Positions 3,480 to 21,614 of a DNA stretch of 39,466 nt are shown here, one piece after another. Within the stretch, counting starts at the first letter, position 1. Each line of letters begins with the position of its first letter. Below the pieces are notes generated by a model. The model was not told where the DNA came from. It did no database searches and saw nothing but the letters and a program-made list of their open reading frames with translations. The position numbers and the translations under genes were made by a program. Origin of the DNA: a phage; the sequence record PZ445457.1; one strand, given 5' to 3'.

Positions 3480-6400
3480 GTGGATAAGTATAACCCGAAC
3501 GAACCGCATGAATATGATGCGTTATTTCAACAAGCTGCTGACACACATGGAGTCTCCTATGGCCTTCTTCGGAAGGTCGGTTGGGTAGAGTCCCGCTTTA
3601 AACCTACGGCTCAATCACCAACAGGGCCGCGAGGTGTCATGCAGTTCACTAAGGCAACTGGTCAGGCTTATGGTCTCCAGAACGATGAGGACTTCACTGA
3701 CCCGGCTAAGTCCATTGATGCAGGTGCTCGTTACCTTGCAGACCTCGTTAAGAAGTACGATGGCGATGAACTTAAAGCTGCCCTAGCGTACAACCAAGGT
3801 GAAGGACGCAATGGTAAGCCACAACTGGAAGCCTACGATTCTGGCAACTTTGCCAACATTGGGGATGAAGGTCGTAACTATCTCCGCTCACTTCTGGATG
3901 TCGCTAAGTCTCCTAAGAGTGGTGACATTGAGTCCTTCGGTGGTATCACCCCAAAGGGTAAAGGGATTCCGTTCGATGCTGCTATGAGTGGTATCGGGAA
4001 GAAAGGAAAGGTAACTACAGAACTCCCTGAGTCTCACTCAATGTCCTTTCAAGGTAAAGAACAGGCCGCTCCCAATCAGCCGTTCGGAAAAGACTATTGG
4101 GAAGCAAAAGGAACTACACTCGACGAAGCCAATGAGCGTTCAACCTTCTTCGGATTCGGTAATGCTGCTGAAGCAGAACTCTCCAACTCAACCTTGGGTG
4201 TGGCCTTCCGTGCTGGTAAGCGTGATAATGGTTTCGATGTTGTTACTGATGTACTTCAACCGACACGGTTTAACAGCCACATTTGGTCGCCTGAAGAACT
4301 CGAAAGGATTCGCAACGAAGTGAAGAACCCGGCGTACATGAACGTAGTGCTTGGAGGTTCCTCTGAGAATCTGGATGAACTCATCAAGTTAGCTAACGAG
4401 AACTATGAGTTGGACTCTAAGGCCGCTGATGCTGGACTTGGTGCGAAACTATCTGCTGGGATTATTGGCGCTGGTGTTGACCCGTTGACCTACGTTCCTA
4501 TCGCTGGGACTGCGGCTAAAGGGTTCAAGCTGGTTAACAAGGCGTTGATTGTAGGTGCTCAAGCTGGCGCTCTTAATGTGGCCTCTGAGGGACTCCGCAC
4601 ATCGGTTGCTGGTGGTGATGCTCACTATGCTGAAGCTGCCCTTGCTGGTATGCTATTCGCTGGTGGCCTTACCGCTATTGCTGATGGTGTGGCTGCTGGT
4701 CTCCGTAAGTCCGGTGCCGAACAGATTGAGAACCCGTTTGCTGCTGCACAGATGCGCTTTGAGGCCCGTGAGACTGCCCGTAACACTGGTGGACATGACG
4801 CAAGTCGAATGCCTCCTAGTGAAGACCGAGTGTTCTCACAGCACAACGGCGTTGAGTATTCACCTCTTGAGACCGAACCGGGTGCCGTAGTGTTGCGTGA
4901 TGGTTCCATTATCAGTGACACCAACTTAGCTAACCCGATGACAGCCAAAGAGTTCGCCGAGGTGGACCCTGAACGTGCTGCATGGGGATTGCCTATGCGT
5001 GGACTGAGTGAAATCGGCTTGAGGACTTTACGTTCTGAACACGCTGAAATCCGTGGTCTCGCTAAGGACTTAGTGCGCTCACCTACAGGTATGGAGTCCG
5101 GTACTCATGGTAAGTTCGGTGCTACGGCATCTGACATCAAAGAGCGTCTGCACAATACGAACCAGCGAACCTACAACGACCTCTATAGTGCAATGAAGGA
5201 AGCGATGGCTGACCCTGAGTGGTCTGTGGGTATGTTCAAGCAGGGCGCTCAAGGTGCTCGTCAGGAAATCTATCGTCGTGCTGCAATCGCTATTGAGCGT
5301 CCAGAACTTCAGGCCAACTTAACGAAGGCTGAACGTAAGGTAATGGACATAATGAAGGAACACTTCGACCTCAAGCGTGAGATGATGGAGAACCCCTCTA
5401 TGTTCGGTAACAAGGCAACCTCTATCTTCCCCAATAGTCGCCACAAAGGGACTTACGTTCCTCATGTGTACTCACGGGAAGCAAAGCAGTTGTACTCACA
5501 GGCTCTTGGTGGTACTGACGGTTTACAGGAAGCTATTGTTGCAAGCTGGATGACATCATACCGTTCACGTCCTGAAGTTAAGGCTCGTGTGGATGAGCAT
5601 TTAGCGGAGACCTTGGGTATCGACCCTAAAGCTGTGACCGAAGAGATGGTGATGAAACATGCCAGCGACAAGGCTTATGGTATTGCGAAGACAGATGAGT
5701 TCAACTCTTCAAGTGTCATCGACGATAACATTGAGGGTCTCGTAGGGATTGAGAACAACTCGTTCCTTGAAGCCCGTAACCTGTTCGACTCTGACATGCC
5801 AGTCACCTTACCGAATGGACAACAGTTCTCTGTGAATGACCTCCGTGACTTCGATATGAAGCATGTGATGCCAGCCTATGACCGCCGTGTTGATGGTGAC
5901 ATCGCTATCATGGGTGGTACAGGAAAGACTACTGCTGAACTCAAGGATTCCATTATGGCTCTCGATAAGAAGTCTGAAGGCAAAGGCGCAATGAAAGGTG
6001 AAGTGGAGGCGCTCAAGGATACCATTAAGATTCTCACAGGCCGTGCTCGACGCAATCAGGATACTATGGGTGACACTATGGTTCGCGCTCTGTCCGATAT
6101 GTCCTTCTTTACGAAGAACGCATACATGGGCTTACAGAACCTAACTGAAATCTCCGGTCTCTTGGCGAAGGGTAACACCCGTGCGATGCTTCATGGCATC
6201 CCCGCTCTGCGTGACCTAGCGTTCCGTAACAAGCCAGTGTCCGGTAAGGAACTTAAGGAACTACACTCTATGGTGTTCGGTAAAGAGTTTGATGACTTAA
6301 TCAGACCGACACGTCAGGACATCATTCAGCGACTCCGTGAGTCAACCGATACTCCAGATTTGGCTGCTAAGGTTGTTGGGACTATCAAGCACACGACTCA

Positions 6401-14322: not shown

Positions 14323-14351
14323 TTGACTCAACGAAAGCAATAACGTAGTAT
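14323..14351 (+). promoter_or_regulatory. Host sigma70-type early promoter (A2-like)
   Basis: TTGACT, 17-nt spacer, TAGTAT. Confidence 0.6.
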
Positions 14352-14416
14352 AGCAGTCGTCAACAACTGATCGCCCTCTGAAACAACATGAGGTGTCATG
14401 GTGAGAAACAAAGTAG

Positions 14417-14446
14417 TTGACAAGTAGTGACGATAAGATGTAAGAT
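14417..14446 (+). promoter_or_regulatory. Host sigma70-type early promoter (A3-like)
   Basis: TTGACA, 18-nt spacer, TAAGAT followed by GTACCAC as in recalled T7 A3. Confidence 0.6.
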
Positions 14447-14637
14447 GTACCACGACATAACGTTCTTGTGATGTCCCACACTGAAAGGGACTCGGTGCTA
14501 ACGAAGCCTGCACTTAAAGCTCTTTAACAATTTGGATGAATAGCACTCTTGAGATGACGACAACAGCGATTAACTCAAGGTGACTCGAAAGAGAGAAGCC
14601 TTTATGATAATCACTGCAACCACATAAGGTAATCATC

Positions 14638-16639: not shown

Positions 16640-19288
16640 ATGAACGTAATCAACGCACCAAAGAATGACTTCTCTGACATCGCTAACGCAATCCAGCCGT
16701 ACAACATTCTGGCTGACCATTACGGCGCACAGCTTGCAGCTACACAGCTTGAATTGGAACATGAAGCACACACTGAGGGCGAGAAGCGTTTTCTTAAGGC
16801 GATGGAACGTCAAATCAAAGCTGGTGAGTTCGGTGATAACGCAGTGGCTAAACCGCTCCTGTCATCCCTCGCACCGAAGTTCATCGAAGCGTGGAACACT
16901 TGGTTCACTGAGGTGGAAGCGAAGCGTGGTAAGCGTCCAGTAGCCTACAATCTGGTACAGAAGGTTGCACCCGAAGCTGCTGCTTTCATCACACTGAAGG
17001 TCACACTGGCTTGCTTGACGAAAGAAGAGTTTACCAACCTGCAATCGGTCGCAACTAAGATTGGTCGCAGTATTGAGGATGAACTGCGTTTTGGTCGCAT
17101 CCGTGACGAAGAAGCGAAGCACTTTAAGAACCACGTACAGGAGGCACTGAACAAGCGCGTTGGTATCGTTTACAAGAAAGCATTCATGCAAGCCGTAGAA
17201 GGCAAGATGTTAGACGCTGGTCAACTGCAAACCAAGTGGACTACATGGACACCTGAAGAATCAATTCACGTTGGTGTGCGCATGTTGGAACTGCTCATTG
17301 GCTCTACTGGTCTCGTTGAGTTACACCGACCGTTTGCTGGTAACGTTGAGAAGGATGGCGAGTACATCCAACTGACCGAACAATACGTTGACCTGTTATC
17401 TAAGCGTGCTGGTGCACTGGCTGCAATTGCTCCGATGTACCAACCATGTGTAGTTCCTCCGAAGCCTTGGACTTCTCCGGTCGGTGGTGGCTATTGGGCT
17501 GCTGGTCGCAAGCCTCTCTCTCTGGTTCGTACTGGTTCCAAGAAGGGACTTGAGCGTTACAACGATGTGTATATGCCTGAAGTCTACAAGGCGGTGAACA
17601 TCGCACAGAATACTCCTTGGAAGATTAACAAGAAGGTTCTGGCAGTGGTCAACGAGATTGTGAACTGGAAGCATTGCCCGGTTGAAGATGTACCTGCTCT
17701 GGAACGTGGTGAACTGCCTGTCAAACCTGATGACATCGACACCAACGAGGCATCACTCAAAGCGTGGAAGAAAGCGGCCTCCGCAATCTACCGCAAAGAG
17801 AAGGCACGAGTGTCACGCCGCATGAGCATGGAGTTCATGTTAGGTCAGGCCAATAAGTTCGCACAGTTTAAAGCTATCTGGTTCCCGATGAACATGGACT
17901 GGCGCGGTCGAGTGTATGCGGTCCCAATGTTTAACCCGCAAGGCAACGACATGACCAAAGGCTTGCTGACGCTCGCTAAAGGTAAACCAATCGGTGTCGA
18001 TGGGTACTACTGGCTGAAGATTCACGGTGCGAACACTGCTGGTGTGGACAAGGTGGACTTTGCTGAGCGCATCAAGTTCATTGATGACAACCACGAGAAC
18101 ATCATGAGCGTAGCGGCTGACCCGATTGCTAACACTTGGTGGGCTGAACAAGACTCTCCGTTCTGCTTCCTCGCGTTCTGCTTTGAGTATGCGGGAGTCC
18201 AGCACCACGGGATGAACTACAACTGCTCTCTACCTCTGGCGTTCGATGGCTCTTGCTCCGGTATTCAGCACTTCTCCGCGATGCTCCGTGATGAGGTTGG
18301 TGGTCGTGCGGTTAACCTGCTGCCGAGCAAGGAAGTACAGGACATCTACCGCATCGTTGCTGAACGTGTGAACGAGATGCTCCGCGAAGCGGTAGTCAAC
18401 GGCACTGATAACGAAGTGGAAACCGTGACAAACAAGGACACCGGAGAAATCACTGAGAAGCTCAAGCTGGGAACGAAAGAGTTAGCTGGTCAGTGGCTGG
18501 CCTACGGTGTGACTCGCAAGGTCACTAAGCGTTCGGTCATGACGTTGGCTTACGGCTCCAAAGAGTATGGCTTCCGCGACCAAGTTCTTGAGGACACCAT
18601 TCAGCCAGCTATCGACGATGGCAAGGGATTGATGTTCACTCAACCGAACCAAGCGGCTGGCTACATGGCTAAACTGATTTGGGAATCGGTAACGGTCACA
18701 GTTGTCGCAGCGGTTGAAGCGATGAACTGGTTGAAGTCTGCTGCTAAACTTCTGGCTGCTGAAGTCAAGGACAAAAAGACTAAAGAAGTCCTCCGCAAGC
18801 GTTGCGCAGTACATTGGGTTACTCCTGATGGCTTCCCGGTATGGCAGGAATACAAGAAGCCAGTACAGACCCGCTTGAATCTGATGTTCTTAGGCCAGAT
18901 TCGTCTACAGCCTACCGTGAACACCAACAAGGATAGCGGGATTGATGCTCGTAAACAGGAGTCAGGCATCGCACCTAACTTTGTCCACTCAATGGATGGA
19001 AGCCACCTGAGAATGACTGTAGTGCGCTCCAATGAGGTCTACGGTGTGGAATCCTTCGCACTGATTCATGACTCCTTTGGCACTATCCCGGCTGATGCTG
19101 GCAACCTGTTTAAAGCAGTGCGTGAAACGATGGTCAACACTTACGAAGAGAACGATGTACTTGCAGACTTCTATGAGCAATTTGCTGACCAGTTGCACGA
19201 GACACAGCTTGATAAGATGCCTGAGATGCCAGCTAAAGGCTCTCTGGACCTGCAAGAAATCCTTAAGTCAGACTTTGCGTTTGCCTAA
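16640..19288 (+). CDS. gene 1: DNA-directed RNA polymerase, single-subunit T7-type (882 aa)
   Basis: Collinear with recalled T7 RNAP: motif A PLAFDGSCSGIQHF, motif C ALIHDSFGT, specificity-loop region QPTVNTNKDSGIDARKQESGIAPNFVHS, C-terminus SDFAFA. Confidence 0.98.
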   Translation: MNVINAPKNDFSDIANAIQPYNILADHYGAQLAATQLELEHEAHTEGEKRFLKAMERQIKAGEFGDNAVAKPLLSSLAPKFIEAWNTWFTEVEAKRGKRPVAYNLVQKVAPEAAAFITLKVTLACLTKEEFTNLQSVATKIGRSIEDELRFGRIRDEEAKHFKNHVQEALNKRVGIVYKKAFMQAVEGKMLDAGQLQTKWTTWTPEESIHVGVRMLELLIGSTGLVELHRPFAGNVEKDGEYIQLTEQYVDLLSKRAGALAAIAPMYQPCVVPPKPWTSPVGGGYWAAGRKPLSLVRTGSKKGLERYNDVYMPEVYKAVNIAQNTPWKINKKVLAVVNEIVNWKHCPVEDVPALERGELPVKPDDIDTNEASLKAWKKAASAIYRKEKARVSRRMSMEFMLGQANKFAQFKAIWFPMNMDWRGRVYAVPMFNPQGNDMTKGLLTLAKGKPIGVDGYYWLKIHGANTAGVDKVDFAERIKFIDDNHENIMSVAADPIANTWWAEQDSPFCFLAFCFEYAGVQHHGMNYNCSLPLAFDGSCSGIQHFSAMLRDEVGGRAVNLLPSKEVQDIYRIVAERVNEMLREAVVNGTDNEVETVTNKDTGEITEKLKLGTKELAGQWLAYGVTRKVTKRSVMTLAYGSKEYGFRDQVLEDTIQPAIDDGKGLMFTQPNQAAGYMAKLIWESVTVTVVAAVEAMNWLKSAAKLLAAEVKDKKTKEVLRKRCAVHWVTPDGFPVWQEYKKPVQTRLNLMFLGQIRLQPTVNTNKDSGIDARKQESGIAPNFVHSMDGSHLRMTVVRSNEVYGVESFALIHDSFGTIPADAGNLFKAVRETMVNTYEENDVLADFYEQFADQLHETQLDKMPEMPAKGSLDLQEILKSDFAFA

Positions 19289-19295
19289 CGGAATC

Positions 19296-19318
19296 TAATA
19301 CGACTCACTATTGGGAGC
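19296..19318 (+). promoter_or_regulatory. Phage RNAP promoter (phi1.1A-like)
   Basis: taatacgactcactattgggagc, followed by gggagccttcgggcttcc stem-loop. Confidence 0.8.
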
Positions 19319-19377
19319 CTTCGGGCTTCCTAAACTTTAAGATACTTTAAGTTCTAACTTTAAGAGGAAACACAATC

Positions 19378-19935
19378 ATGTTTACTTTAATCACTTCAGT
19401 AGGCGCTCTCGTATCAACCATTCTTGCAGCAACATACTATAATCGTTCAAAGGTATTTCTCACTAAGCTAATCAAAGAAGAGAAGAACTCTCATGCACTC
19501 AAAGAGAGACTTGAAGATGGATGGCGAGAGAAGCAGGAACTAGCTGGTCGAATCCGTACCTTAGAGTTCGAACAACAATATGACATGTCGAACCAACGAG
19601 AACTCATTGAGCGTCTACGCGCTGAGGCAGTGGAGTACCGCAAGGAACTTAAAGAGGCAAAGAGTACCATCCGTGAGTACACTCACAGTGACATCACGTC
19701 TATCAAGTTTACTGCACACATACCGGATGATGGATGGAAGCGCACTGAGTTCAAGCTGGGTCTTGGCTCGTGCGGTAAGCAAGTCACCTGCCTACATTGG
19801 GTGGAACAAGCCGACCGCTACCTGCTGACGCAGACGTGCACTGATGGTGAGCGCAAAGAGTTCACCTATTATAAGAAAGATGTAGCGGGTCGCATTGAGA
19901 TTGCACGTAAGGTTGCAGACAATACGACTCACTAA
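19378..19935 (+). CDS. Hypothetical membrane-anchored coiled-coil protein (185 aa), in the slot between gene 1 and gene 1.1 (T3 gene 1.05-like position)
   Basis: RBS gagga plus repeated ctttaag motifs upstream; N-terminal TM helix MFTLITSVGALVSTILAATYY, central charged coiled-coil, Cys-containing C-terminal domain. T7 has no gene here as I recall. Confidence 0.7.
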   Translation: MFTLITSVGALVSTILAATYYNRSKVFLTKLIKEEKNSHALKERLEDGWREKQELAGRIRTLEFEQQYDMSNQRELIERLRAEAVEYRKELKEAKSTIREYTHSDITSIKFTAHIPDDGWKRTEFKLGLGSCGKQVTCLHWVEQADRYLLTQTCTDGERKEFTYYKKDVAGRIEIARKVADNTTH

Positions 19936-19942
19936 TGGGAAA
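19920..19942 (+). promoter_or_regulatory. Phage RNAP promoter (phi1.1B-like), embedded in the 3' end of the 19378..19935 ORF
   Basis: caatacgactcactaatgggaaa; the ORF terminal codons N-T-T-H-stop are encoded by the promoter itself. Confidence 0.75.
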
Positions 19943-19950
19943 CACTGAAA

Positions 19951-19993
19951 GTTAAACTCAAGGTCATCACAATTGGTGGCCTTCATGATTAAC
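19951..19993 (+). promoter_or_regulatory. Conserved hairpin element, candidate RNase III site (R1.1-like)
   Basis: gttaaactcaaggtcatcacaattggtggccttcatgattaac; 10-bp upper stem aaggtcatca/tggtggcctt plus flanking lower stem; one of three near-identical copies. Confidence 0.5.
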
Positions 19994-20026
19994 TGTCATT
20001 AACTACACACAAAAGGAAACAACATT

Positions 20027-20176
20027 ATGCGTACCAACTTTGAACCAACCACTAAGCGCAACAACGTAATCAATGAACACGGTGCTGAATGGCAGGAACG
20101 TAAAGACCGCATGAAGAAACGCCACAAGACACAGCGTGGCAACGCTGAGAAACGCAACTGGAAGGAGGCACTCTAA
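20027..20176 (+). CDS. gene 1.1: gp1.1-like small basic protein (49 aa)
   Basis: MRTNFEPTTKRNNVINEHGAEWQERKDRMKKRHKTQRGNAEKRNWKEAL; RBS aaaaggaaa; resembles recalled T7 gp1.1 in size and character; stop overlaps gene 1.2 start. Confidence 0.6.
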   Translation: MRTNFEPTTKRNNVINEHGAEWQERKDRMKKRHKTQRGNAEKRNWKEAL

Positions 20177-21579: not shown

Positions 21580-21614
21580 GGTCAGTCCTTAGCGGGGCTG
21601 GCCTTTTTGCGTTT
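21580..21614 (+). terminator. Rho-independent terminator (TE-like early terminator) after the ligase gene
   Basis: ggtcagtcc-ttagc-ggggctggcc stem (with G-U pairs) followed by tttttgcgttt. Confidence 0.6.

Follow-up and report, generated by a model that had tools for sequence, protein, structure and literature searches.

The window analyzed here (i.e., the whole 39,466-nt stretch of phage DNA; sequence record PZ445457.1) carries an open reading frame (ORF) at positions 19378 to 19935 on the plus strand, which starts with ATG, spans 558 nt, and encodes 185 aa according to a program-made ORF list. The ORF is flanked upstream by the gene for an 882-aa T7-type RNA polymerase (RNAP; gene 1; positions 16640 to 19288) and downstream by a 49-aa gene 1.1 homolog (positions 20027 to 20176). 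The features of the locus are listed below.

19296-19318, plus strand: phage RNAP promoter phi1.05 (TAATACGACTCACTATT followed by GGGAGC; +1 at G19313), an exact match to the 14-nt core, driving gene 1.05.
19313-19330, plus strand: 5' stem-loop of the phi1.05 transcript (7-bp stem, UUCG loop; RNA fold of 19313-19377), followed by a CTTTAAG-repeat leader.
19362-19368, plus strand: Shine-Dalgarno-like sequence AAGAGGA, 10 nt 5' of the ATG.
19365-19372 and 20014-20021, plus strand: AGGAAACA repeats bounding a 649-bp cassette, as seen by comparison with phage Berlin.
19378-19935, plus strand: coding sequence of gene 1.05 (185 aa, 21.6 kDa, pI 8.7; ORF list, homology, and dN/dS).
19378-19443, plus strand: N-terminal transmembrane (TM) anchor, aa 1-22 (predicted N-out/C-in).
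19444-19686, plus strand: charged alpha-helical coiled-coil stalk, aa 23-103 (about 12 nm if straight).
19687-19917, plus strand: six-stranded beta-domain PF25755 (Phage_T3_1_05), aa 104-180 (Pfam, AlphaFold2 [AF2] strands, and conservation).
19918-19935, plus strand: low-confidence tail, aa 181-185 (DNTTH), and stop codon.
19920-19942, plus strand: phage RNAP promoter phi1.1 (CAATACGACTCACTAAT followed by GGGAAA; +1 at G19937), overlapping the end of gene 1.05.
19946-19998, plus strand: hairpin with an internal loop (fold dG, -18.1 kcal/mol; z, -2.4), similar in sequence to the promoter interval between genes 1 and 1.1 of T3 and T7.

The original prediction had placed a 185-aa ORF with a good ribosome-binding site (RBS) between gene 1 and gene 1.1, and both statements hold exactly. 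An 801-bp region of the locus shares 93 to 98% DNA identity with the Berlinvirus phages SPLA4, S523, D226, 285P, BA14, Kvp1, and PhiV-1, and the records of BA14, 285P, Kvp1, and PhiV-1 name the same ORF gene 1.05 or gp1.05. The protein is 95 to 99% identical to the annotated gp1.05 of D226, 285P, and BA14. Pfam family PF25755 ("Enterobacteria phage T3 gene 1.05 protein") matched aa 106 to 176 with 102.2 bits against a cutoff of 27 (E value, 1.5e-29), and the alignment spanned profile positions 2 to 72 of 73. The ORF is near-certainly gene 1.05 of a BA14/Kvp1-type Berlinvirus, and the architecture described below is near-certain as well. Both the gene and its family are thus already known, i.e., annotated in GenBank records from 2008 onward and as a Pfam family. 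A correspondence with gene 1.05 of T3-like phages had also been proposed, and the Pfam score and the annotations of the four relatives support it, except that T3 gp1.05 consists of the C-terminal domain only.

Homologs of the domain are numerous. A tblastn search detected PF25755 in 543 phage records, a profile search of 5.8 billion proteins yielded 373 family proteins, and an exhaustive HMM search of 1.84 billion cluster representatives yielded 259 clusters at 50% identity, of which the 150 listed are all small proteins (59 to 242 aa). The Pfam profile matched all 73 of the diverse family members that were scanned. For comparison, the C terminus of T7-type RNAP was found in about 1,424 phage records, so that the 543 records with a detectable 1.05 domain correspond to about 38%; the carriers include most Klebsiella K11-type phages. 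Three PHROGs (8103, 6440, and 6379) matched gp1.05, and all three are of no known function. Searches of Pfam, PHROGs, NCBIfam, PADLOC, and PDB sequence profiles revealed no link beyond PF25755 and these PHROGs; there was no match to the window gp1.05 among PADLOC models and no meaningful one in NCBIfam. The papers searched for gp1.05, gene 1.05, and PF25755, including ones on phage JSS1 and on an accessory-gene screen, contained genome-table mentions only, with no function reported.

Among six Berlinvirus orthologs, dN/dS was 0.06 to 0.11 with dS up to 0.84, and both halves of the gene were constrained (N-terminal, 0.04 to 0.19; C-terminal, 0 to 0.09). It could be argued that the frame is spurious or decaying, a by-product of a spacer carrying only promoters and an RNase III site, given that T7 and Yersinia phage Berlin manage without gene 1.05 and that the final codons are dictated by a promoter. 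The low dN/dS at such divergence, the 259 clusters of the family, the confident AF2 fold, and the residues that are invariant among members at ≤50% identity all speak against this argument, and we give it a negligible probability. Judged from its sequence evolution, gene 1.05 is a genuine protein-coding gene, and a reading as "not a gene" is excluded. A second copy of gene 1.05 was sought in the window, and none was found.

The phage promoter core AATACGACTCACTA occurs 15 times in the window (≤2 mismatches), always on the plus strand, against 0.24 copies expected by chance, and two of the 15 copies flank the gene 1.05 ORF on either side. Both phi1.05 and phi1.1 are annotated in the BA14 and Kvp1 records, with the same overlap of gene end and promoter. 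The gene ends with GAC AAT ACG ACT CAC TAA, its TAA (19933-19935) occupying promoter positions -4 to -2 and the codons for NTTH plus stop (19921-19935) lying inside the promoter. Because the ORF reads through phi1.1, the terminal N-T-T-H-stop is promoter sequence, which bears out an earlier proposal that the next promoter encodes the last codons. NTTH is present at the same place in 21 of 24 close homologs of gp1.05, and residues 182 to 185 are disordered in the AF2 model (pLDDT, <50). After the +1 position, several of the window's other promoters show hairpins similar to the 5' stem-loop of the phi1.05 transcript; given the analogy with T7 transcripts, this stem-loop may have a stabilizing role. 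The T7/T3 region resembling the hairpin at 19946-19998 is known in T7 as the R1.1 RNase III site. An Rfam search of this hairpin gave no family matches, and by the same resemblance it is a probable 3' processing site of the 1.05 mRNA, where RNase III would cleave.

On a larger scale, three sigma-70-like promoters (14323-14608, i.e., about 14.3 to 14.6 kb) precede the early genes. Directly after the ligase gene comes a strong hairpin with a T-run (21580-21603) that resembles a terminator. This hairpin is probably the early terminator, TE. From the positions of these promoters and of the terminator-like hairpin, we conclude that the window is a full genome in circularly permuted form, with its left end near 14 kb. 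Gene 1.05 is located inside the host-RNAP early unit that extends from the sigma-70-like promoters to the TE-like terminator at 21580. By analogy with T7 genes 1.1 to 1.3, we infer that it is transcribed first by the host RNAP and then by the phage RNAP from phi1.05. Given this layout (i.e., the early-unit position and its own promoter), synthesis of gp1.05 probably starts in the first minutes of infection and continues from then on.

The gene is present in some phages of this group and absent from others. In Yersinia phage Berlin, the type species of the genus, only 113 bp separate gene 1 from gene 1.1 and there is no gene 1.05. There, a phi1.05-type promoter and the same CTTTAAG leader and RBS lead straight into gene 1.1 (junction ...CTTTAAGAGGAAACAACATCATG-gene 1.1; L014:113-250). 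Relative to Berlin, the window contains an extra 649 bp that comprise gene 1.05, phi1.1, and the hairpin; the two AGGAAACA copies bounding this cassette sit within the two ribosome-binding regions. The arrangement suggests that the cassette was gained or lost by recombination at this short repeat. In the Kvp1 paper, 1.05 is among the regions dissimilar to Berlin, and several such genes are absent from Berlin (PMC2579914).

T7 has phi1.1A, the R1.1 hairpin region, and phi1.1B only between gene 1 and gene 1.1, in agreement with an earlier statement that T7 has only promoters and an RNase III site there. In T7 (5830-6010; L015:130-310), a promoter and R1.1-type hairpin come first, followed by a promoter and CTTTAAG-repeat leader. 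The order in the window (19296-20026) is the opposite: promoter and leader, gene 1.05, and then promoter and hairpin. The tandem phi1.1A/phi1.1B of T7 was considered as a simple scar of a lost 1.05 and rejected, because the modules are the same but their order differs. The gene had originally been described as inserted, which is correct relative to T7 and Berlin. Since Studiervirinae widely carry the domain beside gene 1, we regard presence versus absence as a polymorphism and not as a novel insertion. By its distribution, gene 1.05 is a dispensable accessory gene.

The predicted protein has three parts, which agree with the original prediction of an N-terminal TM helix, a charged coiled coil of about 80 residues, and a Cys-containing C-terminal domain. 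Residues 1 to 22 contain no charge, are hydrophobic (Kyte-Doolittle, 1.79 over 19 aa), and precede NRSK. TM-type segments occur in 187 of 283 family sequences and start at residue 1 in 173 of these 187. Among the TM-bearing members, K/R counts average 0.02 in the N-flank versus 3.9 in the 15 aa after the TM, and the positive-inside rule is obeyed by 186 of 187, so that an N-out/C-in topology with a cytoplasmic stalk and domain is predicted. The charge of gp1.05 itself lies only C-terminal of the TM, as predicted for a single-pass N-out/C-in inner-membrane protein. A Sec-type cleavable signal peptide was rejected, because neither the window protein nor 173 of the 187 TM-bearing homologs have a charged residue ahead of the hydrophobic stretch and because the AF2 helix runs unbroken into the stalk. 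An i-spanin of the Rz or T7 gp18.5 type was likewise rejected: its topology would be the opposite of that predicted from the charge distribution, and the gene is located beside gene 1 in the early unit, upstream of the TE-like terminator, and not in the late lysis cluster.

In the AF2 model (40-sequence alignment; mean pLDDT, 89), residues 2 to 102 form one continuous helix. The stalk was modeled with a pLDDT of 90 to 97, and its hydrophobicity has a periodicity peak at 3.5 residues. It probably oligomerizes, as judged by the heptads. In the 59 TM-bearing representatives, the distance from the TM end to the invariant Cys is mostly 90 to 120 residues, with a minor short class, and its mode across unrelated stalk sequences is 100 to 110 residues. 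Profile-scan matches of the stalk to HIP1, ZorB, SMC, and similar proteins were dismissed as coiled-coil composition noise.

The C-terminal domain is composed of six beta-strands (residues 106 to 115, 119 to 126, 135 to 143, 147 to 154, 159 to 165, and 169 to 177), and the same six were obtained when the domain was modeled alone (pLDDT, 83). It holds all three Cys residues of gp1.05 (132, 138, and 154). Conservation was computed over 147 cluster representatives at ≤50% identity. G128, C132, and Q152 are conserved in 100% of these; G130 and G133 in 99%; F162 and G171 in 98%; R172 in 97%; and K160, Y164, and V136 in 95%. Position 154 is Cys in 44%, His in 40%, and Thr in 13%. The PF25755 signature (F-x-L-G-x-G-P/S-C-G ... 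Q ... D-G-x-x-K-x-F-x-Y ... G-R-I/V-E) is complete in gp1.05 (F125, L127, G128, G130, C132, G133, Q152, D156, G157, K160, F162, Y164, G171, R172, and E174).

Several biochemical readings of the domain were considered. A Walker-A reading of GLGSCGKQ was rejected, because its Lys is replaced by Leu in 17% of the representatives (including Klebsiella and Aeromonas phages) and because the context is all-beta. The domain is near-neutral (median net charge, +1; pI 7.9), so its charge gives no hint of the kind of ligand, and nucleic-acid binding inferred from charge was rejected. A zinc site is only a possibility: a single Cys is invariant, and although position 154 is Cys or His in 84%, Thr at this position in 13% of members, T3 included, weakens the metal-site reading.

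In the homology and structure searches, the PF25755 family was recovered and no known fold relative reached significance. PDB sequence profiles contained no relative of the domain, and the best Foldseek match in PDB, a WYL domain (E value, 0.09), was below significance. In BFVD, significant matches were limited to uncharacterized Autographiviridae proteins (hosts: Salmonella, Klebsiella, Pectobacterium, Dickeya, Pseudomonas, Ralstonia, Delftia, Erwinia, Aeromonas, and Vibrio). In view of these negative searches, the domain is an orphan small fold. Small beta-barrel domains (Hfq/Sm, WYL, SspB, and SH3-like) are among the nearest known folds, and a resemblance to an Sm/WYL-type barrel is possible and not established. 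The domain occurs alone (about 75 to 130 aa) in T3 and in most of the more divergent members listed, and it contains the invariant residues; we therefore consider it to be, on these comparisons, the conserved functional core of gp1.05.

Two kinds of variants were observed. In four loci (L035:3980-4540, L038:1274-1831, L039:3944-4516, and L040:3923-4516), proteins of 185 to 197 aa carry about 100 extra residues within the domain, placed after the strand that ends in ...TQ.SR and before the strand K-x-F-V-Y-K; this insertion looks like a subdomain in the beta4-beta5 loop. A 110-aa metagenomic protein (P0029) retains the BA14-type TM, stalk, and tail GRIEIARKVADNTTH and lacks the whole beta-domain, i.e., an internal deletion variant.

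The N-terminal half behaves differently from the domain. Compared with BP12A and PP74 (L012 and L013), nucleotide identity is 90 to 100% in gene 1, the promoter, and the leader, falls to 33 to 55% across 19378-19680, and returns to 75 to 97% in the domain and beyond. For 22 close homologs, the median identity is 23% in the N-half and 84% in the domain; their N-halves fall into 11 types at 50% identity, and purifying selection still acts on the N-half within a single type. Taken together, the drop in identity, the 11 types among 22 homologs, and the selection within types indicate that the TM and stalk form an exchangeable cassette kept as many alleles. The exchange pattern suggests conflict or specificity. 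As far as these comparisons reach, the TM and stalk are an added module, found in BA14-type, K11/KP32-type, and Aeromonas phages. Many family members lack a TM (T3, Cornix, and the stand-alone forms), so that the core activity cannot depend on membrane tethering.

The position of the domain gene relative to gene 1 varies among lineages. In enterobacterial and Aeromonas phages, it is located immediately downstream of the RNAP gene. In Pseudomonas Studiervirinae (vB_PaeM-G11 and PspYZU08) and in IMG/VR loci, it is located immediately upstream, at a distance of about 110 to 190 bp (L041:3480-3767 and L042:3306-3635; IMG/VR L022, L025, L028, L029, L031, L032, L035, and L038 to L040). In two Studiervirinae clades, the gene thus adjoins gene 1 from opposite sides, which may reflect a link with the polymerase or, equally, a small early region. 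In phiKMV-like-looking contigs (with a primase/helicase-like pair downstream) and in two viral contigs of 83 kb and 115 kb, the domain gene is found among other early/DNA-metabolism genes, and no RNAP match was found within 4 kb of it. Stand-alone PF25755 proteins were observed on the two viral contigs (L030, 83 kb; L036, 115 kb), which are far above T7-like size, and on the high-GC contigs L027 and L033 (GC, 0.63 to 0.65), beside a 262-aa ORF starting with MTTQLLIDAD. Given these large and high-GC contigs, the family is not strictly confined to T7-like podoviruses.

The original prediction had suggested a role in host takeover, superinfection exclusion, or anti-defense. All three are compatible with early expression, dispensability, and a hypervariable N-module, and no PADLOC, NCBIfam, PDB, or literature result favors any one of them. 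We tentatively propose, as the preferred but low-confidence reading, that gp1.05 sequesters or relocalizes a conserved cytoplasmic factor at the membrane. The N-terminal 22 residues would anchor the protein in the inner membrane by a single pass, leaving almost no part of it periplasmic, and the stalk of about 80 residues, a probable oligomer, would hold the C-terminal beta-domain (about 75 residues) in the cytoplasm up to about 12 nm off the membrane. The domain would probably bind a single conserved ligand in the cytoplasm (a protein of the host or phage, possibly a metal) through a surface formed by the invariant G-x-G-P-C-G loop, Gln152, Cys/His154, Asp156, Lys160, and Arg172. The exchangeable TM and stalk would multimerize the domain and keep it and its bound ligand at the membrane, so that the ligand would be relocalized or sequestered during host takeover. 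Against this proposal stand the near-neutral charge of the domain (+1), the many members without a TM, the Thr at position 154 in 13%, and an oligomerization deduced from heptads alone. In outline, sequestration of this kind resembles phi29 p16.7 and membrane-anchored anti-sigma factors, which are unrelated. We think it unlikely that a more far-reaching version applies, in which PF25755 is a new small beta fold whose Cys loop captures a conserved host factor (or a metal at an oligomer interface) and which has been repeatedly fused to swappable anchor/coiled-coil cassettes that pull the factor from the cytoplasm. If true, it would amount to a previously undescribed membrane-sequestration mechanism of host takeover or counter-defense in one of the best-studied phage groups.

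The variability of the N-module could instead reflect an arms race between phages, with gp1.05 in the inner membrane hindering genome entry or early development of a second, related T7-like phage. Unrelated N-half alleles in otherwise 90 to 100% identical genomes (11 types among 22) are typical of conflict loci, and an early-expressed, dispensable gene with a predicted membrane anchor would suit such competition. However, the TM starts at residue 1 and leaves almost no periplasmic part, the conserved part is predicted to be cytoplasmic, many phages have a soluble stand-alone form, and Pfam, PHROGs, and NCBIfam scans revealed no similarity to known exclusion proteins; superinfection exclusion is quite improbable in our estimation. 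Early genes 0.3 and 1.2 counter restriction enzymes and dGTPase, respectively, and the beta-domain might similarly bind and neutralize a host immune component, possibly a membrane-associated one. Gene 1.05 sits among early counter-defense genes (0.7 and 1.2), its distribution is patchy and accessory, and its N-module is rapidly exchanged. Nevertheless, an effector domain so conserved would be unusual for an inhibitor of fast-evolving defenses, and neither a PADLOC match nor a paper tying 1.05 to a defense system was found. The family motifs (KFTAH, GPCGK, GSCGK, and GPCGL) were also not found in the supplementary files considered from one accessory-gene screen. An anti-defense role seems distinctly unlikely to us. 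Very improbable, finally, is a membrane organizer of the phi29 p16.7 kind, whose domain would hold entering or replicating DNA, RNA, or the phage RNAP: the plan of a TM, a coiled coil, and a C-terminal binding domain is shared with p16.7, there are weak fold matches to nucleic-acid-binding small barrels (e.g., Hfq/Sm and WYL), and two Studiervirinae clades have the gene directly beside the RNAP gene, each on a different side, but the domain is not basic, the fold scores are below significance, the adjacency may only reflect a small early region, and the phiKMV-like-looking and larger viral contigs had no RNAP match within 4 kb.

T7-like phages are among the main models of phage biology and often provide the chassis in phage therapy and engineering, and gene 1.05 is still without a function in them. 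It is a well-defined target for study, with a domain of invariant residues, presence/absence variants within one genus, and a swapped N-module. For genome annotation, the ORF is a known gene and not a new insertion. The present analysis provides useful leads (i.e., the consensus topology, the loop with its invariant Cys, the N-module resembling a cassette, and the location of the gene on either side of gene 1) and no discovery of a new kind.

Among known systems, phi29 p16.7 is an early, dispensable, membrane-anchored organizer of DNA replication, with an N-terminal TM, a coiled coil, and a cytoplasmic C-terminal binding domain that is helical and binds DNA. Only its overall plan is like that of gp1.05, whose C-terminal domain is all-beta and near-neutral; membership in a p16.7-like group was rejected, there being no sequence or fold relation. 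T3 gp1.05 occupies the same slot after gene 1, has a homologous C-terminal beta-domain (48.6% identity over aa 106 to 174), and also has its stop codon within the next promoter; it differs from the window protein in its length of 90 aa, in having neither a TM nor a stalk, and in having Thr in place of Cys/His at the equivalent of position 154. The "fusion protein" of Klebsiella K11/KP32-type phages (Przondovirus) and the Aeromonas Studiervirinae homologs have the same TM, helix of about 80 to 90 aa, and PF25755 domain, encoded after gene 1, but their N-module is unrelated in sequence and their loop reads GPCGL, compared with GSCGK in the window. The gp1.05 of BA14, 285P, and Kvp1 shows no structural or contextual difference from that of the window: it is the same 185-aa gene product (96.8% identity to 285P and four substitutions relative to BA14), encoded between the same phi1.05 and phi1.1 promoters with the same overlap of stop codon and promoter.
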